Shown here piece by piece: positions 4,321 through 48,900 of a DNA stretch of 64,000 nt (position 1 is its first letter; each line of letters opens with the position of its first letter). A program made the position numbers and the translations under genes. Where the stretch lies: NCBI GenBank assembly GCA_030265395.1, contig JARFYF010000051.1, forward strand, positions 17,744,264 to 17,808,263. The letters run 5' to 3'. The notes below the pieces were generated by a model that worked only from the letters and a program-made list of their open reading frames with translations, searched no databases and had not been told where the DNA came from. The stretch is from Rhina ancylostomus (lineage: Eukaryota).

Positions 4321-5889
4321 CTCTGTGGGAGAGGTCTTAAATGAATACTGCTTGTCTATATTTGCCAAGGAGGCTAGTGAATTTAGGGAAGGATAAGTTG
4401 ATGGTCCAGAACATGTCAATATTAAGCAGGTGGAGGTGTTGGATATTGTGGAACACATGAGGGTTCTTAGATCTATCCCAGGATGCTGTGGAAAACAAGA
4501 GAGAAGATTGCTATGGGGCCTGGATGGAGATTTTTGCATCTTTATCAGCCATTGGAGAGGTACGAGAAAACTGGAGAATAACTAATGTTCCTTTAAGAAG
4601 CAAGCAGGATAAGCCAGGTAATTACAGGCTGATGACCTTGATGTCAGTGGTAGAGAAACTGGAGAAAATTCTAAAAGACAGGATTTATGTCCATTTAGAA
4701 AGACAGGGCTGATTACAGATGGTCTGTATGGCTTTATACTGGGGAAATCCTATCTCACTAATTTGATTCAGTTTTTGTGAGGTGGTTACAAAGGAAGTTG
4801 ACTAAAGGCAGGAATGAACCTTAGGCCATTTGACAAGGTCCCACATGATAGGCTGGTCCAGAAGGTTGAGGTATTGGGATCCAAGGTGAGCTGGATCCAA
4901 AATTAGCTTGGTGGTAGGAGGCAAAGTGGTGGATGTTTTACTTATTGGAAGTCTGAACGGTGGTGCAGTACAGGGTTTGATGCTGGGACCTTTGCTGCTT
5001 GAAATTGTGTTTTTAATGACTTGAATATGAATGTAGGAGGTACAACTTGGCAAGTTAGCAGATAACACAAAAATTGGTGTTGTGAATAGCAAGGATAGAG
5101 ATCAGAGGGAAAGTTGGACAGAGCATTGAAGATGAAATTTAACCCCAACTAGTGCAAGGTGATGGATTTTAGTAGGTCACAAAGGGATAGAACATCAGAA
5201 ACTTGGTTTCAAACCCATATTCCTTGAAAGGGATAATACAGGCAGCTGGAGTGATGAGTGGCATGACACGCTTGCCTTCATAGGTTAGTGCGTAGAATGT
5301 GCCAGGATGAACTTTAAGGTTGAGAGGTGTAGATAGTTGATCTCCTTCCCATGGTAGGGGTATCAAAAACAAGAGGGCATAGGTTTAGAGTGAGGCCAGT
5401 TTTAAAAAGGAATCCAAAAGGAGGTTTTACTTGCACACAGTGATCAAGTTTCAGGACCTCTCTGCCAGAGATGGTCGTGAACTCAGACACAATTATTTAT
5501 TTGAGACATTCAGATAGACACAAGGACCTCATGCCGGCAAATGGAATTAATGTAGTGGGCAATAAAGCCAAGGGCACGGTGGGCTGAGGGGCCTGCTTCA
5601 AACTGTAAGGGAGATGGTGCAAGTCAAATGATGAGGATCAAATCAGTGTTTGGACTGATGACACAGATGGGTTGGTGATTCTTAGTTGCAAGATCTTCCT
5701 GTATACCCCATACAATTTCAGATTAGTTTAGTCCTCTCTACCAGGATACAATGAAATTCCATGTTTGCTTGAAGCTCAATGTAAACAGTATAATAATTGT
5801 AATAATAAATAACATGAAATAACTGAACAGATTGTTGATAGTTACTTCTAATGAGACAAAAAGCAACAGTGGCAATTTAGCAGGTATCT

Positions 5890-5895
5890 TTTATT
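5890..5895 (-). promoter_or_regulatory. Probable FLNC polyadenylation signal (AATAAA); 3' UTR of about 0.9 kb
   Basis: AATAAA on the minus strand followed by a U/GU-rich tract (ctgttgctttttgtctc). Confidence 0.6.
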
Positions 5896-6766
5896 ATTCT
5901 TGCCAGACATGGGTTAATGTACCAAACACAAGGCTCATCATTTTCATACAAACATTCTCTAGAAACAGACTGGGTAACAACTCCAAACACTGCTACCCAC
6001 AAGTCCAAGAGCACATCCAGCACATCATGTACTGTCACCATCACATGATCTAGCTCAGTTCCATGAGTACAGCAGTCAAATCACCATTTGTTTTGCTCCG
6101 AACTGTCAGTGCAATATCTGGTCAGGGTAACAAGTGAATGGAGATATTGGAGGACTGATCATATTGTGAACAGGGCAGGAAGGACATGGGATAGGTGGAA
6201 GAGGAACAGGCAGAACAGAATGAATTATTAACGAACCAACCCAAGTTTATTGGGACCACTTGATAACCTATTTCCACCCATCCTCAACCTTTCCCAATCA
6301 CAGCACTGGGTCAAAAATCAGCCTAAGCAGCTGGCAATATACTTTAAATTGGATGTTCTATGCATGTCTTGCCTTGGGAGGAGCAGAAGGTTGATGTGAA
6401 AGTGAAGCATCCTGACATTCTGCCCTCTGGGCTGCAACACCTGGATGAGAGGGTGCCAGTCAGACATGTAGCCAATAATGGCTCCTTTCAACACCCTCCA
6501 AAACAAAATATTTCTACCACAAAACAGAGGAGTTAGGGAAACTCTTGAATGAGGAATTGCTAATTGTTCTGGTAAATTCAGGCAGCTTCTAAAAATCAGT
6601 GTTTAACCCAGAAAAACCTTCCCACTGTACCTCCCCCCTCCCACCCCAATAACCCACCCTACTGGGTGACTATGGTTTTTAAGTTAATTTTTTTGTTTTT
6701 CTACAAAAACTTTGACAGTTCAGATCCTCTGAGATGCAACAAAGGTTCCACAAGACGATCAGTCAT

Positions 6767-6954
6767 TCATGGGACAGTAGCATGGAATGGGCTGCCAGGC
6801 ACACACTCATCTCCCCACTTCACGATCAGAATGTAGTCACCCTTCTCCTTCACAGTGTACGTAACGTTATAAACCCGGTTGCCCATGTGTTTCACGTAAA
6901 CCTCCTCACACGGAGTCTTCGGGCCATGCACTCCCACCATCAACATGTTGGTTC
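6767..6954 (-). CDS. FLNC: FLNC last coding exon (48), dimerisation repeat Ig24 and TGA stop
   Basis: [32 protein letters not shown]...SPFHATVP*. Confidence 0.96.
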
Positions 6955-9900
6955 CTAGAATGAACAGAAGTAGGTTACTGCAGGAGATCACTACAAGTGC
7001 ACAAGTTCAGAGGGTCACTGTGCAGGCCAGTGAATGGGGTAGTGAGGTAACCATTTCTCTCATCCAGCACAAGTTAGCTGGATTGTGCCTGTGACTATAT
7101 TTCCTCCAACCACCACGAACCAACCCCTATCCCTGCGCCTCAGGCATGCTCCACACCTACCACCCTCAATCCCCGAAACTCACCTGCTTTGCTGCAATCC
7201 ACAGTGAAGTTGTTCTTCTGCCCAATGAAAGCCTTGGATAGGCCAGGCCCTCGAGATACCACTTTGCTGGCATCAGATGCAAACTTGGGCATTGGTCCAT
7301 ACCCAGCAACTGTGGATGACTTGGTAACTGTTTCAACCAGGACAGTGGACGTCTCATGTAAACTATGGCCCCCAGACAGACGGACACCTGGAATTGAAGA
7401 GGGTACAAGTTATAGTCCCCCTGCAGCATTGGCCTCACACCTGGACTCTCAGCTCCACCAACCTCTCCTCCCCACTTGCACTGTTCCAACCTGGGATCCA
7501 GCTCTTCCACAGCCTTGCCCTTCTCCACACTAAGCATGCCCATTTTCTGTGATGCAGTCAGGATTAAATCCAGGGTATGCTGTGGCCATTAACCCAGAGA
7601 AAAGGCAGCACTGCACTCCTGTGAAGTACCAGCACCAGTGGAGATGTGCATCAAATGAGCTGAGGCCAGGTATTGTGGAATCCAATTACCTTAAGTCTTT
7701 GCCCCTTGGTAATGACCTCAAGGTAATAAGAAGAAATATTACATTTGGGAGTTGGATAGGGTGAAGCCATTTTCACTCAATGGTGGGTGCCTGGCACTCA
7801 CTGCTAATAGGGTGGCTGAAGAAACAACAAAAGTACCTAGATGAGCACTAGCAATGTTGTCACCTACAGGGCTATGGCTTGAGAGCTGGGGAGTGAGTTT
7901 AGCTCCATTATTTGTATTCCAGTTTAAAGATTCTATACTTTGTCATTTTTTTTATGATCCAATAAACTTGTGCTTACCTGTGACCTTGGCCTTGAAGGGA
8001 CTACCAACAATATGCTGAGGTCCACCATATTTGATGGAGATCAGGTAATTCCCAGGAGCCATTGGGGTGTAGGTTACCTTATAACCTTCAGGACCCTCTT
8101 GGCAGTCCATCTTCACTTTGGATGGGCCATCGATGGTGACAGAAAGAGCTCCAGCCCCAGCATTACATGTATTGACAATAAACTCAGAGGGCACTCCTGT
8201 ACATAAACAAAAACACAAAGGCCATCACTATGAAGCAATCTTCTCCAGCATTTAAAGTTCAGGAATAGCTGAATACACAGATCCACTAGATTATATTCCA
8301 ACCTGCAAGTCACACTAGGCATCCATTGATCTGTATATATATCCCCATTGAATCACTTCTGAATTCTAGCTTGGAACATTCTTGTTTTGTTCTCATTACA
8401 TTGTATGACCATAGAGCAATACAGCACAATACAGGCCCTTTGGCTCACCATGTTGTGCTGCCCATCAAACCACACCTCACACTATCTAACGCTTCCCTCC
8501 TGCGTATCCCTCTATCCCACATTCCTCCATATGCCTATCCAACAATCTCTTGAACCTGTCCAACATATCTGTCTCCACCACCCCAGGCAGCGCATTCCAT
8601 GCACCAACCACTCTGGGTGAGAAATCTCCCTCTGACATCTCCCCTGAACTTCCCACCCATAACCTTAAAGCCATGCCCTCTTGTCCTGAGGGCTGGTGCC
8701 CTGGGAAAGAGGTGCTGGCTGTCTATTTATTTCTCTCAATATTTTATACACCTCTATCATGTCTCCCCTCATCCTCCTCCTCTCCAGTGAGTAAAGCCCT
8801 AGCACCTTAAGCCTCTCCTTAATCACAGATCTTTGTGAAGGCCCCGAATGATTGATGCTGAGATGTAGTCCTGACCCAGCAGCCATTATTGTGTCAGAAT
8901 CTGGGTGATCAGTGCCTGCTGACTATGTGACCACTTGCAGCATCACCTCTAACTGTCCCACTGACCAAACCTGGGAACTTCCATTTGGGAATCAGACTAC
9001 TGCTCTCTAACTCGCAAACACTAGGGCAGTTTGACTCTTGCCTGGTTAACTCAGCACAGACCAAGTTACACCTGTTCAGAACATCCTGAGCCATTACTAG
9101 TGGCACTGTTGAGCAGGACGGCGAGGTGTGAGGGAGAAGTTTCTCTCCCTTGAGCCCATCTCCTTCATGTGCAGGAGGGAGGCTGAAGAACTCCCTCAGA
9201 GAGATTCATGGGGTGAGTATGGAATGATGAGCACACCAGGAACACCACGGAGGACATGAGCTATGTGAATAAGCTTCTGGACATGGAGGGGAGGAAGTGG
9301 GAACCAATCGGAAGTGCTCTGAAATATTTGCTTATTGAAATTTCAGGCCAATGACAAGGTTGGCAGATCAGAGAGACGGGCAGGTGAGCCAGAGAGAGGG
9401 CTGATGAGCATGGGTCCGTGTCTACACAAGGGGCAAAGACTGAGGGAGGGGAAGATGGCTCTGTGGTTTACAGGTGGTGTGGATTGGCCCTGCAGTGCGG
9501 GAGAGGCTGGTCGGGCTCTGTAAAGATCGCTCTTACCCATACTGGCCGGCATGGCTGCCTGTGTGAGAGTGTTGCGCTGGGGGCTGATGAGCTGGCTGAC
9601 AGATGGCAGCTTGTTCCCCATACTGTGCACTTTATTCATCGGCGGGGGAGAGGGCCCAAAGGATTGCTGTGACTGCATCGATGGCCTGAAAGAGAAGAGA
9701 GGGAAGTTATTGCAATACAGTCCTTATGCAAACATCACTATTCTCAGGGAATACATTCACCATCCCCAAATGCAGAGCCAGTACAGAGGAACCACTTGTC
9801 CCACACACCGTCCCGTGTAATCTCACTCCCTCTAACCTTCCATATCTGTCCTCAAGATTTATCCAGTATCCACGTACAAAGGCAGTTCCTCAAAAATAAT

Positions 9901-12900
9901 TCCATTAGTCCTGATGCAGGGTCTCGACCTGAAATGCTCACCATCCTGCTGCCTCCACAGATACTGCCTGACCCAATGAGTTCACCCAGCAGTTTGTTTT
10001 TCACTCCAGGCTCCAGCATCTAGTTTCTCAACCATCTGACAGTCTGGTGCAACGTAAATATCCTCTCTCCTCTCCTTGTTGATCCTGAGCTGCAGCTCCT
10101 GCCTGTTGTGTTGTTGTTGGAAGTGGCAAGGCCTAAGGAGCCTGCACTGAGGAGAATTAGTATGTTTGTTGTTTCAATAGATTAGTTCATATTGAAAGAA
10201 ACATCTTTCTGAGGTATAATGCACCTCCGAAATACTTACAGACAAAAACCTTGTAATGTCAATGTGGCAACCATTTTGTAAACACAAGCTACGAGAGGTT
10301 TGACCAATTCACCTGTTTCTGGTGGTGTTGATACAGGATAAGTACCAGACTACTGGAGAGAACACCACTGCTCTTCTGTAACATTTTTAACCTTCTCCTG
10401 GCCAGAATATTTGGTTTGACGTCTCATTTGGAAGAAGTCACCTCTAATGTTGCTAACACATGCATTCAGAGCTTTGGACTGAGCACAAGCCAGACATTCA
10501 TGAAGTGATCGAGGGATTTGGGGATTACGTGGACGCTGGGGTAGTTGAGGCTCTCAATTGGACAACAGTTAGGGACGATGGGGGTGGGGCTTGGTTGGAA
10601 TGCCTTCCAGTTTAGTCAGAAAGCTTGCATTGCACTTAGCCACACATGGGCAGGGTGTGTGGGCACAGTGGTATTTGGAGCCCGAGGAGCTGCACCCTAG
10701 GAATGTCGTGGACAAGGGCGAACCACAAGGAGAGAAGGATGCCAGATAGACATACACAATCCTTTTCCAATTTATGTTTCAGTACTTTTAATGAATAAGG
10801 TCCTTGGGTTTGTTCCACCTCACTGCTGCACCACAGCCATTTCTCCAGCCACATACTGAACATGGCTCAATGATTCCTGGGTAAGACACTATGGTCTGCC
10901 TCGGCTCCCACAAAATGACCTGCTCCTCGGGACTGTGAGGTGCTTCCTCACAACAGCAGAACCAAGAAACACTCCACACAGACTCTAGTAACCTGATTTA
11001 TTTAAAGGTTCAAGAACAGTTTTCAGTGGTACAAAAGAGTGCCAACAATTATACTGCAAACACATACTCCTGCACTCAGGAATATATGTGGCCAACAGCA
11101 ACAGCAGAGTTGCTCCCTGGGACTAGCCAGGTGAAGGAGAACATTGGATAAACAGTGTCTGGTGACGTAAGGGATTCCACAATAAAACAGAACGCTGGTA
11201 TCATCAGGTCAGGCAGCCTCTGGGGAGGGACAAGAGTTGTTGTTTCAGGTTGATGACTTTTGTTAGAACTGAAACATTAATCCCATCTTTCTCTCTTCAC
11301 AGATGCTGCCTGACCTGCTGTGTTTTTTCAGCATTCTCTGTTTTTATTTCAGATTGCCTGCATCTGTGGTGTTTTACTTCCCACACTACAAACAGCACCT
11401 TTGGGCAATGAGAGACTTTATTAAACAAGAAAAAGACATGTAGCTGCAAGATTTGCTTTTTTTTCTGATTTACATGATGGGTGAACTCTACTTTCCCATC
11501 AGCATCCATGGGCAGAAGTGTGTGATAGCCCTGTATAAGAAACTCTGGTTAGACCACTCTTAGAGTACTGTGTTCAGTTCTGGTCGCTGCATTATAGGAA
11601 GGATGTGGAGGCGTTGGAGAGGGTGCAGAGGAGATTTACCAGGATGCTGCCTGGATTAGAGTNNNNNNNNNNNNNNNNNNNNNNNNNNNNNNNNNNNNNN
11701 NNNNNNNNNNNNNNNNNNNNNNNNNNNNNNNNNNNNNNNNNNNNNNNNNNNNNNNNNNNNNNCTCTGGTTTTTCCAAGTATCCAAACTCTTGATTTCTCC
11801 CAGTGAAAGAATACAGCACCTATTGCCAAGTCTTCCCAAAAATAAGAAAACAAGGCAACAGGTGCTTAGAAACCACAATATGGAATTTGGCAAGGGTGGG
11901 GGGCTCATAATTCAAGGTACAGAAGTCCATCCAGTTCCCATCTATAAATAAAGCTGGGTGATAAAGCCCAGGGGAACCTCTTCGTTCCCCAATCTCATTA
12001 ATACACTGCCAGTCCAATGCCATGCTCCTGCTCACTCCCCAGAGCCTTTAATATCCCATCTCACTCTGATTGCTCCCTAGACTCGAATATCCAACAATGC
12101 TTAAAACATTAGAATTGGTAGAACACATGTTAAAAAGATTAAAAAGGGTTGACTGAGATTAGAGTTGGGGAGGTGCCAAGCTATAGGGGATTGGAAAATG
12201 AGGGCAGAGTTTAAAAAGCAGAGCTGTTAAACCAGGAAGCCACATGGGTTAATGAGGCTAGAGGTGATGCATATAATTTAAAAAACTTGGCATCAGTTAG
12301 TATACAGGTAGTACTTTGGACCTCAGGTTTACAGAAGGTAGAGCAAGGAAGGCTGCCAATTCAGAAGTAGGAAGGGTCATGTCTATGTGTACCACTACAT
12401 TGTGATAATTGTGAAAACTCATTTATGAGCCAACAAACCATTCAATTCTAGAACTTGCTGGATAACCTGTGATCTTTGGAAAACATTAAATCTTACACAA
12501 TTACAAAGGCACAAATGAGAGCATCAGTGGCAACTGCATGTTGCAGAGCAGAATTGGGCAAATGTTAAAAAGGTGTTGTTGGCAGAAATAAGATCAGAAG
12601 CTCTTCCATAACACTATTACAGTGCCAACGACCCAGGTTCAATTCCCACTACTGTCTGTAAGGAGTTTGTACGTTCTCCCCGTGTCTGCGTGGGTTTCCT
12701 CTGGTTTCCTCCCACATTCCAAAGACATACAAGTTAGGAAGTTGTGGGCATACTACATTGGCGCTGGAAGTGTGGTGACAGTTACAGGCTGCCCCCCCCC
12801 CCCCCAAGTACTCTATGCAANNNNNNNNNNNNNNNNNNNNNNNNNNNNNNNNNNNNNNNNNNNNNNNNNNNNNNNNNNNNNNNNNNNNNNNNNNNNNGTG

Positions 12901-15900
12901 TGGTGGGGGGGGGTGGGGAGCTGTAGATTTCAGTGCAACAAAAAGAGAAATTGGAAAAACAAAGCTTCAGAAAAAAAGGCAGGAGGAGATAGCGCTGCAC
13001 AAGTTAAGTGACCTTGAGTTGTCCTTCTGGAAGTTTCTGAGTTACTGAAGGCTGTAGGGGCCTGGATCTCGTGTTACAGCTTAAGCCCCAGGCAGCTGCT
13101 GCAAGAGGCCATAAGCACATGGTATGGGAATAATTGCTTATTCTGGGTCAGATCAATAACAGCCCTCAGCCACATACACCACATCCAGCTGCAGTGGCTC
13201 CCACCTCCCCCTTCCACTGGGTGTTGTATCTACTCCCTCCTGCCCCACTTTGCTCCACATCTTGTTCTTGTCCAAGCCTGGGACACAGACAACTCTCCAT
13301 TTTCCCTCATCCCCTGTGGGGATCTGCAAAAAGGAATTGCATGCTCGGATTGCCCCACCAGAACATCACCATGAAATCAGATGACAAAAATCACTGTTCA
13401 TCATTGCTACTGTGTTAACCATTGTGTGGCTGGAAGAGGGCAAGGGAAAGAACTAGTGAATAGGTAACAGAAGAAGGTATAAGTACAGGAGGCAAGCTGC
13501 ACTTAAAACAGTGCCACACTCCCTCCACCCACCCACCAAAATTCTCCCCAGTCACTCACCACTATCCAGCTCTGACATGTAACATTCCTCCACAGCCCCA
13601 GATGGGGTCCGAACTTTTGCATCGATCACTCCTCTTGCTCCATTCAGCTGAACTGCAAATGAGGCTTGTTGGTTGACCTTTAACCCTGATTCCTGGGCAC
13701 AGATTAAATAGATAATAAAATCTGAGCAAACATTCCAGATCCATTTGCCCAAGGCTCAGCATTTCACAAGTTGGAGTGTGAAGGGCCTCTACACTGTCCA
13801 TCAAAAAAAGCACCAAGGCGAAGGTAATATACTTTAGACAGAGGAAAGCTCCATCTGCAGAGTCCCAACAATCACTCCAAGGCCAGGTATAGTGTTAAGC
13901 TTTCTACCTCAATATTTCAACTAGCAAACAGTTACAAGAAAAGGTGGTGGTAATTTAAAACTGAAGTGTGTAGGAATTTCATCTCACATTGGTCATGGGT
14001 GCTGACATTGAGAGGCAGCAGCTCCACTAACTGCACCACATTTAATGGTAGGGCAAGCTTGAGGGGCCAAGTGGCCCGTGATAGTGCAAGAAACTAGGAA
14101 CAATCTTAAACACCAGCCATCCTGTGTCCTCTCAGAGTAGAGGAAGGCTCAGCAATGCTCTCTCAAGTGTAATGCAGGCTGCTTTGTGCTGAACAGAAAT
14201 CAGCTGCCATTTAACTTCTGCAAAAAACTCATTCTTTATGAAGTCATCACGGGAAAAAGTCTGGTTGTCAATTCAGACCAGATGTAGTGGGGGAGCAGCA
14301 CAAGCTCCTCCCGTGATTTCTCAGCTGCTGCTGCCTCCCAGTTCTGGAAACCCCTTTGAGCACTGTTCAATGCCCTGCACCAGCAGCTTCTCATCCCCCA
14401 CAATCCACAAAAACCCTGCCCCACCCCACTCTGAAACACAGCCACATTCAGTGCCTGCCTTGTGCACACCTGGAGACTGGTAACGGTGAGTCTGCGGGCA
14501 GCATCCGAGGGAGAAGCAATCGGAACAATAAATGGAGAGTCTGGGATGTGCTCATCATTGAACTTGATGGATACCTCATAGTCACCTGGAAAAAGAAGAG
14601 AAGCTCAACTCAAGTCTGGATACAGAAGGTTTAAAAAAGACAAAACAATTCCATCCAATTTACTGACCAGGTTCCTGTACAACGTAGGAAACGCCACATG
14701 AGCCATCCTTGCGATCTTCAAAAGAGATCTCTGCTTTGCTTGGGCCTTCCACAGCAATGGAGAGACCACCAGCCCCAGCCTCACGGGTCCAGATGCTGAA
14801 TTCAGCTGAAAACGGGAGAAAGCAGTGAGTGACTGAGGGATAGGCACACAAAATATACTCCATAACCTCAACAAATCTACACCACCATTCTGTTCTTCCT
14901 GTGATCAGTCTCTCTCCATACCCCATCCCCGGACCACACCTATATACTCTTCCATCCTCCACCAAAGACTGGCCCCATTCCTGCCCTTCCTCAAGTAGCA
15001 CCTGTTCTCTACTCATCTGCCATTTCATTAAGCATCAGAAACTCACCTGGCACTGCAGCAACACCACGCTCCAAACCAGAACCCCCAGCTCGAACCTTGT
15101 GGGATCCTCCCTCGCCCAGTGGCCCCACAGTGAACTGGAAGGGGCTGCCGGGAACATGTTGGCCTCGATACTTAACATTGACAGTATGAGAGCCCATCTC
15201 TTGCGGTATGAACCGCACACTGTAAGTGCTGTCGTCTCCCTCAATAATTTCTGCATCATCCATCTTCCCAGATGGGCTGGTGACCTGTGCCGTCATCTCC
15301 TTTGCTCCAACTTCCACTGCAAAGAACAAAAAGTTAGAAAATTTCTTAAATCATATGGCAATAGCACCCCATAAATATTGGTTCATCACTTCCTTTTCAA
15401 ATATCATGTTACCCCCTCTTGATTAAGCACAGTCAGATGCACACCTTCAGCCCGTGGGATATTGGTAAAGGAGCCCAGGCTTTCACGGCCCATGAACTCT
15501 CCGAATACATTGTGGAAAGGGTCCCCTCCAACTTGTGTGGATTCCTCCACTCTCACTTCTCTCTTAGTTTCACCACCACGCGTTTTACTGATCTCAGTCC
15601 GTTCCGTGCGTGTGTAGGTGTGGCTACTGCGTGTAAAGGTCCTGGTCAAACGCTCCTGTGCAGACACCATCTGGAACCAATTTCCTAAAAGAAAAAGGGG
15701 GCAGGTGGGGGAAGATGAAGGAAGACAGAACCAATGAGCAAAAAGGTGAAGTTTGGGGGGGGGGATGCAATATTGTCTATTTTGGCAGAAAACAATAAAT
15801 AAAAGCACATCTACATGGAGCGAGACAGCCAAGCTCTGATAGAGGGATCTGGGTCTGGTTCACTCAAGGATAGTATGCAGGTACAGAAAGTAATCAAAGT

Positions 15901-42900: not shown

Positions 42901-45900
42901 CTGGGCCCAGTCTAGGCAAGATGGTCAGATTTAGAGTGGACTTGAAGGTCTCTCACCACTTTGAACCTACACTGCTACTGATCCAATGGCCATGGGTACG
43001 AGAACCCAATTTGTTATATTGACAGCCCTCAGTAACCAACATCTACCAGAAGAGAAAATAGCATCGCCAAGTTTGGTGAAGTATTCCCAGAGGCTGCATC
43101 AGGATCTCCCACCTCCAACCACTCGGTCAACAGTCAAGCAATCTTTCACCCATCTTAATGTTCATAACCAGCATGGGAAAAAGAAAACACTGCATTTTGA
43201 AGAGAGGATTTCTTTTCATCACTTGCTCCCATGTCTAGGGGATCATTATNNNNNNNNNNCTCTAGCATGACCACATCTCTCAGTCAGCTTTTACTCACCA
43301 GTCCGGCTCAGTCCAGGACCTTCAGCCTTGACCTTTCCAGCATCATGCGACGGCTCCACTTTAATGCAGAATGGGCTGATGGGAATTTCCTACAAATAAA
43401 TTGGACAGGAAGTTATTAGGCAAGTTCAAAAGGCATGGCTGGGGGGGGGAGGTGGTTGTGGACGGAAGGAAAGAGGAGAATGGGAATGGGAAAGGAAAAG
43501 GAAAAAAAAAATCAGCCAAAGAGAATCTAGGAGAATTTTTAAAAAAAGGCCCAACTGCACTGCACAGGATTGATTGTCAGTAAAGACTTTACAGTGAACT
43601 AACCAGGCACAGCCACCTATCAATCCATGTCCCTCACAGGAACATTCCAAGAGCAGTAGACTACTTGTGCCCATTATTCACCTCCACCATTCATTGAGAT
43701 TACGGCCAATCTGACTGAACCCTTAAATCCTCCTACCCACTGCAATCTTTCATCCCATTGCCACTTCTCAGAAATATTCAGACACTCCATTTGCCCATTG
43801 GAGAAGAGTTCCAAAGATTCAAAACCCTCAAATACAATAACTTACCTCAGCTCCATCTTAAGGGACAGCTCCCTTATTTTTTCCTCAATCACTTGCTCCC
43901 ACCTCTAGGGGATTCTATATTTTCCCCCAGAGGCACCGTCTCCCCTCCCCCCCCCCAAATTGCTGGAATGCACCCCACATTGAAAAACGTTTCATCATCT
44001 GCCTGGCACACTGTCCTCAGTCACCCACCCTCCCCCACCACCCGACTATTCTCTCACAGATAAACCCTCTCTCCAGCCAGAATTTCTCCATATATACCCT
44101 CAGTGCCATGCAAAGCACAGTTCATGAATTGCAGCCTTAAATGGATTGTGGAGAAAACTGAAGGACCTCCTTTCCCTTCCTGGGAGGAAGGCCCTTCACA
44201 NNNNNNNNNNNNNNNNNNNNNNNNNNNNNNNNNNNNNNNNNNNNNNNNNNNNNNNNNNNNNNNNNNNNNNNNNNNNNNNNNNNNNNNNNNNNNNNNNNNN
44301 AATGTCTGATGCCTCAGGTGCAGTAATTAAGACTTGCACAGGCAGCCCATTCCTTAATGACCTCCCATCACTTTTTAAACTTAAATTTTTCTTTAAATTT
44401 TATTTACAGCTTGGTAACAGGCCCTTCTGGCCCAACAATTCCGTGTCGCCCATTTTAAACCCCAAATTAACCTACCCGTGCGTCATTAGAATATGGGAGG
44501 AAACAGGAGCACCCGGAGGAAACCCAAGCAGACATGGGAGAACATACAAACTCCTTACAAACAGCAACAGGAATCAAACCCCAATTGGTTGCACTGTAAT
44601 AGCGTTGCACCAACCACTACGCTACTGTGCCGCCCCCTTTGGCAGATCCAAGATCATGGAAAGAGTGATGGACAGCAGTTGGAGATTGCAAATGCACAGA
44701 AAATCAGTGCGGAAGAATAAACAAAGGTGGGGTAGGAATCATAGTGGGGTGTCAGTAGGAGAAAGTTAGGAGGGTGGGAAAAGGATCATATTGAGGGTAA
44801 CAAGATCAGAATGAACAAGGGAGATTGGGGTACTGGCTTATATGGGAGGGATCTACCAAGAAGGTCATGGAGCCTGCACTGGAGATCAAAGAGGGAAACA
44901 CTTATCAGGGAGATCAGAGAGGAGATATGGAGTATCAAGGAGAAATTGAGTGGAAGAACGCTGGTGGAGGAGGAGAAATCAGACAGGTCTGGGAGCAGTG
45001 ACCAATAACATGGAGGAACAGGAGACTTGGTTTATAAGATAATTACAACAGATGGAGGGTTTAAACGGGAACATACCTCAGGACAGATTGACACCTCAGA
45101 AATTGCAGTGGCTGCCCAAAAGGGGATAGGCCCTTTAACCTGATGAGGCAAGCCTCAACCCTCCAGTTCTGATCTGCTCAGCCGATTGAAACCTGTGCAG
45201 CTCATGAATTTTGTACATGGTCAAAAATCACAGCACATATCCAAATCCCTCCATGCTCACACACATCATACACATAGAGGCCCATACTGAATTTCCAGAG
45301 ATATACAACGCATGCACATAGTCCCCATTTGTATTTGTTGATACCATTTTGGATGACGTTCATTCACACAGAGAATAAATGTGCTGCACTAAGGTAGAAT
45401 TCTAGGTCTGGATGTCATGCCCCATGATATCTATTATAACCCCAATGAGTCAAACTTGCGACCTTATTTACACTTCCTTCCACTCTATTCCATTGTCCTG
45501 GATTCTCCACCTCCATAATAGCTGTTCCAACACATTTTCTATTCAAGAACTTCTGTAAAGATGCAGCTTTTTTTCTAAACTAAAGATTCTACTCAGCTGT
45601 GATTGGCAGATCATTCGACTGTGACTGTCTAAGTTTTTGTTCTGGCTCCCCCCTCACCTTCCCTGTTCTGTCAAAACCAGGATCAGCAGCCCTCTGTTCT
45701 TACTTTCTACTCCACCCGCGCCTTCATTCTACCAGCTTCAATATGATGCCACAACAAACACCTCGACATTCTGGAGGGACAGTTCCCTCCACGGCATCCC
45801 TGGAGTTGGGCCTCCTCCTAATTTATATGTTCCACATTGATCTGTCCACATCATACTGTGACAATTACTGCATTACCCATGGCACCATCCCAAGAAGGCA

Positions 45901-48900
45901 TCCTCCCCTTTCCTCCCTATTGAGGCCTTCAACTCTTCTTCCATGTGAACATAGAACATAGAAAAACTACGGCACAGTTCAGGCCCTTCAGCCCACAAAA
46001 CTGTGCTGAAAATTGAAGCAGTGATTCAATTGCACTCTCCTTCCCCAGGAAGTGACTGCTTGATTAGTTTGCAATACATTCATTGGCTGCCCTGTGATAT
46101 CTTAGTCAAGTATTCTTTCTCCATGTCTGAGACCACACAGTGAGGGGTTTATTTCACTGAGTGTGGGAGGGAACGCCATAACCAAGTCCTTCTCACCTTC
46201 TGTCTACACAAGCGCATTGGTCCAACATTGAATGCAATTGCAAGATGGAATGTCAGACATACCAAGGCCAAAGGGAGTAGGCAGCCCTACCAAATGGTAG
46301 GTTACAAGCAATTAAGATTCTGCTGTCCCCTGCTATTTCTTATAGTACAGTAGTACGCCATCTCTAGTTTTGATTTTGTATCGCTTTGCATGTAATCTAG
46401 CAAATAAAATCCAATGTTCCCGATTAATCTATACCCGTGTAATTCAGGATAAGAGAGTACAAATGGCAGTAGTCCAGCATTTCATATTTCTAATATAATG
46501 TACAGTGTCCAAATTACATCAGTCATTTGTGATTACACACCCCATTTAAGATCATGTTCCACTTAGCTCACAAGACAACTGAAATAAAATAATAAATACA
46601 TATTATAATCAAAACTACATTTATCTTCAAAGCTGATATATCAATTGAGGTATTAATTAAAATACCTGAGACCAGAGAGTAGAAATCAAGACACGAAGCT
46701 TATTTAAAACTGACACTTGCAGGAAAAAGATTTGAAAGATGGTAAACAAGGCAATAAAACTCTGATGAAGCAATAAGCTTTATCATCAGCTATTATAGGT
46801 TTTAACAACCATCCCCTCAAGACAAACAAAAGTAGATATGGCAAATTACCAAGATATTAGGCCTAAATTTCTAGACTGAAAATAACTAAATGCTCAAACG
46901 CTGAGTGCATGTGTATTAAGGAAGCAGTTCTTGTTCTTGACCAGATGTACTTTACACAGACAAAACTGAAATCTAGATCTCCAATATTCATATATCTTTA
47001 TAATTGTTATAGATGTTTTAGTTTACACCAAAACCGATCCCATGTGGTATGTTCAATAACATGTGGTACAGGTTCACCATGATCCACCTGCTAATATATA
47101 GAAATTGTCCATTTGCTCCCACAACTTGTCTAAATAGCCTTAAATGATTGTTGTCAGATTTTTTCACAAATGCATCAACTTTTGACAAAACTGCCTATAT
47201 CCAAATTTATAATGAGAACCTGTCACGCTGTAATTGTACTCTGCCCCCAGTGGTTGGTGCTGCTGCAATACTTGGGCGTTATACCATCCAGCTCCACAGC
47301 CTGAACCACAAGGAAGCTCTTATAAAAACAATTCTTTACTGAATAGCACCAATAAAGTAGCAAAAAATGCCACAAGGCATTAAACAAGAACATGGCTGCC
47401 CGTCAAACCAGACACAAATCTTCAACTGCACGATGCAAGTTTAATTTTCCTTCTTTTGGCTTTATTAATTTCCAGTCACAGCATTATCAACAAAATTTAG
47501 TGCCAAGCCTCTATATTCCAATAACCTATACTTCTGTACTTTGCAGTTTTCTTCTTACTGCAATTGTACAATATGAAGTTGTTTGCAATGGAAATTCTTT
47601 CACATAACACAACAATTAGAAGCATTTTAGAATTCAAAAGATAACCAAAAATTAATGAAGAAATAGTAAATGAGAGTAAACTTGTGAGAAACAAAAAAGA
47701 ATAAACCTTAAACACTTCTAAAGGGATGCAAAATGGAAAAGACAAGCAAGAGCACATGTGGGCCCCTTATGCACAGAGGTGGAAGAATTTATAGCAGGAG
47801 AATAAGGAAATAGCAGAGGAATTAAAAACCTACCATAAATACTGGAGAGCCAAAGGAGAATCGGTACAAATGAGAAAGTTAAAAAAAAACTGGTAGAAAA
47901 GAAACTACTAGCGAAGCTAATGAAGCTAAAAACTGATAAATCCCAAGAACTTGATGACCTTCATCTCAGAACTTTCAAGGAAGTAGCTATGAAGATAGTG
48001 GATGCTCTGGTTATCTTCTTCAAAATTATTTACATCTGGAATGGTTTCTGCAGACTGTAGAGTGGCAAACATAACCTGTCAAAGAAGAGGGCAAAATGAG
48101 ACTGACACAGGATAACCCAGTACTCAGTGAGACAGTCGTGCCTACAGTTCACAATACAGAGGGCTGAGCTGCCCATCTGCAGCATTTTGTTAAATATCTT
48201 TGTCCAAACAATATCAACCCTCATGATTTGCCTTCAACAAATCCAAGTGATCAGTTAGTCATCAGCCCACACCTCCAAGCGTCAATTAACTTTATCCAGA
48301 TTATCGACTCTTGTTTCCCTACAGCCAGCATTTTGCCGACTGGTTTGCAGCTGGTTGTAGCCCTCTCCTCTTAAAACACAAAAGGCAGGAACTGGGCGGA
48401 GCATTTCCCAGAGACTCACCTTGTCCAGCCTCACTGCAGTCCACTGTGAAGTAAGTGGGTTCATTGGCCTTGAGTCCTGTTTTCTCCACACCTGGTCCAT
48501 ACACTTTCACCTTCTGTGGGTGACAGCCTTCACCCACAGATACCTAGGGACATGCAAAATGCAAGTTACCACACAGCCAATTCAGGGCATATTCCAGTGA
48601 AATGCAGAGCAGCAGCAGCACAAGACAAGTAGTAAAATGGGTAACCAAGTTGGTTCTGAGAAAAAAAGTCAGTTGTATAACCCAGGTAAACCTCAATGTG
48701 CAATACCAGGTTCTTCACTGTCTCTTCACCCCACCCATTAACCAAACTCCCTCTCCTCCTACTTACTGATTCACTGCACTCCCCTTCACACCCATCTCCA
48801 TCACACTGACCCACCCCAATCATCACTACCCCCTCCCATCAGTTTCCATTACACTGGCCCAATCCCACTGATACCTGCATCTCCTATTCTGTCAGGGAGA

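Follow-up and report, generated by a model that had tools for sequence, protein, structure and literature searches.

In a preprint on assembly errors (bioRxiv 10.1101/2020.05.22.110833), a piece of the platypus VTG2 gene is described as having been assembled into an intron of Calpain-13, and the same preprint puts the number of mis-joins in short-read hummingbird assemblies at ~5,000-8,000. For the genes that concern us here, the mouse TP63 exon 10' comes after intron 10, according to one paper (PMC11802870), and skipping of TP73 exon 11 is reported in another to shift the reading frame (PMC10471163). The locus described below resembles the platypus VTG2/Calpain-13 case in that a gene piece lies inside the intron of an unrelated gene while its native locus is fragmented. 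Unlike that case, where the error is stated to have been proven by a long-read assembly, the TP63 case is argued from within one assembly.

The DNA analysed is a stretch of 64,000 nucleotides (the window, G000:C51:17744264-17808263) from a fragmented Rhina ancylostomus assembly of 2.2 Gb in 65,984 contigs. Exon numbers are given throughout in the human gene numbering, and the bounding repeats, labelled as in the initial annotation, are presumably CR1. The features discussed are as follows.

7978 to 8196, minus strand: FLNC exon 46, 219 nt.
8197 to 8407, minus strand: 3' end of FLNC intron 45, the 211-bp interval between exon 46 and the repeat.
8408 to 8832, minus strand: member of a high-copy CR1-like LINE family, truncated at its 5' end and 89-92% identical to many copies; probable site at which FLNC intron 45 was falsely joined to TP63 intron 11.
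8833 to 11539, minus strand: putative misplaced TP63 genomic piece with part of intron 11, exon 11 and part of intron 10; TP63 identity is established for the exon alone, and the intronic sequence is assigned to TP63 because it is contiguous with the exon.
9537 to 9685, minus strand: TP63 exon 11, 149 nt, phases 2-1, intact, the sole copy found in the assembly.
11540 to 11662, plus strand: upstream portion of another copy of the repeat family, entering the gap; its 3' end is probably C94:108957517-108957655, on the right flank of the TP63 gap.
11663 to 11762, no strand: gap of 100 N that separates the stranded piece from FLNC intron 44, with no repeat 3' end after the gap.
13560 to 13692, minus strand: FLNC exon 44, 133 nt, ending in phase 1.

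FLNC (filamin C), the host gene, carries the muscle-type insert and is read from the same strand as the exon. The initial annotation had reported a 149-nt exon on this strand, its acceptor an AG behind a strong pyrimidine tract and its donor G|gtaaga. The exon is where it had been placed, from 9685 to 9537 on the minus strand; the acceptor AG follows a pyrimidine-rich tract, the donor reads G|GTAAGA, and the undecayed peptide translates exactly as had been given. The surroundings were also described correctly. The sequence runs without a gap from FLNC exon 46 at 8196 through the repeat at 8408-8832 to the exon, the repeat stub on the other side runs into the 100-N gap at 11663-11762, and no neighbouring p53-family exon was found in the window or in its 10 kb and 20 kb flanks. 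A comparison of GC content by segment was uninformative, and a Pfam scan of 93 of the 152 listed frames in 8197-13560 and 43390-48420 returned no family above the cut-off.

The exon peptide gave significant p63 matches (E 4.5e-18), in keeping with the p53-family origin that had been proposed for it. It is 82-94% identical to elasmobranch p63, above p73, with 46 of 49 residues (94%) shared with Mobula hypostoma p63 (XP_062901312.1) and, over the last 43 residues, 42 shared with p63 of the sawfish Pristis pectinata (XP_051873288.1), in whose model the first few exon residues read differently. This closeness to ray p63 equals that of the native TP63 exons on scaffold C94. In 28 of 31 elasmobranch p63 proteins from 15 species the exon is flanked by the sequences of exons 10 and 12, and the three proteins that lack it are gamma-type isoforms. 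The TP73 exon 11 of this genome has a different sequence, lies in place on scaffold C59 with a 33-N gap inside it, and gave no score when the genome was searched with the stranded exon. The mixture of p63 and p73 features described in the initial annotation is contradicted by these comparisons. Judged by its sequence, the stranded exon is a plain ray TP63 exon 11 and no p63/p73 hybrid; it agrees with the exon 11 of Mobula and Pristis in sequence, has phases that fit exons 10 and 12 of this genome, and differs only in its position in the assembly. TP73 exon 11 is its paralogue, and skipping either would shift the frame, for TP73 as reported (PMC10471163) and for TP63 in silico.

A genome search with the exon returned one significant match, which was the exon itself. 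A search with whole p63 gave 25 matches and placed the TP63 gene at C94:108.95-109.09 Mb; this scaffold covers all of p63 except residues ~430-473, for which the sole match is the stranded exon. It had been asked at the outset whether the native locus lacks the exon or has it as well, and the TP63 locus assembled on C94 is without exon 11, one of the two signs of an artefact that had been named there. No second copy is present in the assembly at the donor locus, the donor site itself being a gap. In a genome search with 8197-11500, much as had been proposed for the whole piece, 40 of 10,357 candidates were scored. Besides the piece itself these comprised repeat matches and one short 74% match, and the absence of a second copy applies to those 40 candidates, as a lower bound.

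The phases agree with a place in TP63. On C94 the phase is 2 at the end of exon 10 and 1 at the start of exon 12, matching the 2-1 phases that had been assigned to the stranded exon. Joined in silico, exons 10, 11 and 12 give 138 open codons, 131 of them identical to Mobula p63 without gaps, whereas exon 10 joined directly to exon 12 gives a frameshift and a stop within exon 12. TP63 exons 12-14 on C94 are intact. Since these exons are intact and yet exons 10 and 12 cannot be joined in frame, exon 11 is hard to place other than in cis. Five gaps lie between C94 exons 10 and 12, and two of them, of 2,775 N and 4,382 N (108953135-108957516), can hold the 2,707-bp core of the piece. An intact p63-gamma-specific exon was found at C94:108964511-108964353 (77-81% identical to Mobula and Narcine; L040). 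In the mouse, exon 10' precedes exon 11. Of the two gaps, that of 2,775 N is upstream of the gamma exon, which leaves the 4,382-N gap as the probable home of exon 11. The piece and the missing part of the repeat would together occupy 3,255 + ~296 = ~3,551 bp of the 4,382-N gap, which leaves ~830 bp of the gap unaccounted for; the piece and the gap's left flank do not overlap. TP63 intron 11 would then span ~3.5 kb.

The right flank of the 4,382-N gap opens with the 3' end of a plus-strand repeat. The plus-strand stub at 11540-11662 belongs to the same repeat family as this flank and is 91-98% identical to several copies. Placed on family members such as L068, the stub ends ~295 bp upstream of the point at which the C94 right flank starts, on the same strand. 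The right end of the piece is thus in register with the C94 flank; its left end does not overlap the donor flank. We screened gap flanks for the repeat family: 7 of 211 N-free flanks in seven stretches matched it (at least 86% over at least 60 bp, a threshold chosen after the data had been seen, with N-containing flanks dropped), and 4 of these 7 are joins predicted for TP63 and TP73. The reference repeat copy was selected for its likeness to the repeat of the window. When the repeat at 8408-8832 was compared by eye with 11 copies, no mosaic switch was visible, and it resembles one ordinary truncated copy. Pfam gave no match on the short frames of the bounding repeats. Three contigs, at window position 11662 and at G000:C51:38910027 and 38934735, end at position 187 of the reference repeat copy, which suggests that this position is a spot where the assembly stalls.

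The stranding of exons on another scaffold recurs, and was seen in three of the five genes examined (TP63, TP73, FLNA, FLNC and, in part, TP53). Four TP73 exons of the DNA-binding domain and linker lie on C112 (G000:C112:90227751-90232748, L058), where a 100-N gap and the end of a repeat immediately precede them. Native TP73 on C59 has a 4,606-N gap (G000:C59:21047080-21051685, L056), the left flank of which is the preceding part of the repeat of the C112 piece, 49 bp upstream in register. The TP73 piece, at ~5,047 bp, is ~440 bp longer than this gap, and the repeat match at its right end extends over 54 bp only (92.6%). A large filamin exon at G000:C51:38917595-38918191 (38.92 Mb, L083) adjoins a 100-N gap and is, by elimination, assigned to FLNA; the FLNA locus on C77, 29% of which is N, has a 2,948-N gap (G000:C77:478011-480958, L077-L078) where the stranded filamin exon belongs. 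Repeat halves in register were not seen at the filamin A case. The TP53-like locus (G000:C70:8535001-8565000, L085-L087) is 55% N, and only some exons of its DNA-binding domain were seen.

Within the host gene, the initial annotation had noted the lack of FLNC exon 45 in this interval, and the exon is indeed absent from the window. It was likewise not found genome-wide with its 57-59 residues among 35 scored candidates. The possibility that it lies on another scaffold was rejected, as these candidates held only FLNA-like (C77) and FLNB-like (C94:24.84 Mb) exons. A second FLNC exon (P0042 residues 301-352) was not found in window positions 43390-48414, which contain a 100-N gap at 44201-44300, or genome-wide. 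Exon losses are common in this assembly, as this second FLNC exon and several FLNA stretches illustrate, and the missing exon 45 is therefore not specific evidence; taken by itself, its absence is weak evidence of misassembly. The FLNB-like gene lies at C94:24.79-24.84 Mb, on the same scaffold as TP63. Human FLNB and TP63 are also on one chromosome.

We consider it very probable, judging from the assembly itself, that the exon was placed in the FLNC intron by a repeat-mediated chimeric misassembly and that its place in the animal would be the TP63 gene. The slight lean of the initial annotation towards misassembly is strongly reinforced by a native locus that lacks the exon and has a fitting gap with the matching repeat end, and the repeat-mediated capture of a p53-family piece that it had offered as the other option found no support. 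This reading draws on the identity of the exon, its single copy, the vacancy in TP63, the fit of phases and of size, the repeat ends in register and the recurrence in other genes. The contig with FLNC exon 46 would have been extended into the CR1-like copy at 8408-8832 and would then have exited into the flank of a different repeat copy, in TP63 intron 11. From there the extension may have crossed ~2.7 kb of unique TP63 sequence including exon 11, to stall within the next copy of the family (11540-11662). The stalled contig would have been scaffolded to FLNC intron 44 over the 100-N gap, and the outcome would be a 4,382-N hole in TP63 and an FLNC without exon 45. We infer that the crossover point lies inside the repeat at 8408-8832, and that the software step was contig extension or gap filling. 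Against misassembly stand the gap-free left join, the ordinary look of the repeat at 8408-8832, the ~830 bp of the C94 gap that the piece does not explain, and the imperfect parallels at TP73 and filamin A described above.

The gap-free join between FLNC exon 46 and the exon, and the single repeat family that bounds the piece at both ends, would equally be expected of a recent and real repeat-mediated duplication (ectopic gene conversion) of ~3 kb of TP63 into FLNC intron 44/45. Near-identical copies would then have been collapsed by the assembler, and a collapsed copy would likewise leave a gap at one locus, so that the same assembly picture is predicted. We regard this as improbable. The 3' end of the stub's repeat is present at C94 and not beyond the window gap, the exon is undecayed and matches sawfish p63 at 42 of 43 positions, and the pattern of a hole and a stranded piece at TP73 and FLNA would demand several independent events in a few genes. 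An inserted exon of this kind could serve as a poison exon of FLNC. Splicing from FLNC exon 44 to the stranded exon gives an early stop in silico, and the 16-residue reading predicted in the initial annotation was reproduced, although the poison-exon idea as such gained no support. The fuller version, in which LINE-mediated ectopic recombination copied TP63 exon 11 into FLNC, replaced exon 45 and made a poison exon, is a shade less probable still; filamin C would then be cut ahead of its last repeats, and the TP73 and FLNA cases would mean unusually frequent repeat-driven exon transfer between chromosomes. A literature search found no paper on a TP63-FLNC fusion in a shark.

Far less credible again is that a separate paralogue of the p53 family, combining p63 and p73 traits, lay beside FLNC and left this exon as its remnant. 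The likeness to both genes noted in the initial annotation speaks for it, as do p53 DNA-binding-domain matches on five scaffolds, but the latter resolve into TP63 (C94), a TP73 split between C59 and C112, the TP53-like gene (C70) and a mollusc-like 525-bp contig, the stranded exon and the C94 exons are equally near to ray p63, and no further family exon lies nearby. A fourth p53-family paralogue was rejected as a candidate for the C112 matches, these being the middle exons that are missing from C59 TP73, and a literature search offered nothing usable on such a paralogue. The 525-bp contig (L002, G000:C62040:1-525) carries an intronless open p53-family frame of 175 aa. Among named proteins the best matches of this frame come from molluscs (a chiton protein at 58%), and an unnamed protein matches it at 85%; the contig is likely foreign DNA or a transcript in the assembly. 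The assembly taken at face value has one copy of TP63 exon 11, on another scaffold, as a real translocation to FLNC would leave it, with p63-alpha made by trans-splicing or lost in the lineage. This we hold to be the least probable reading of all, against which stand a sized gap in the native locus exactly where the exon is expected, intact TP63 exons 12-14 and the presence of the exon within the p63 models of 15 relatives.

Chimeric misassembly thus remains the preferred reading, and it is very likely that the exon is an ordinary one whose location in FLNC is an artefact and not real biology. As biology, the location is most likely of no importance. If true, the duplication would be one of the rare cases in which the transfer of an exon, here into a muscle structural gene, is caught in the act. 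The stranding of TP63, TP73 and FLNA exons off their scaffolds is a caution for this genome: claims of gene loss, of an extra p53 paralogue or of exon capture need read-level checks. The TP73 exons on C112 could pass for a fourth p53-family gene, and a naive count would credit this ray with a defective p63-alpha and one p73-like gene too many.
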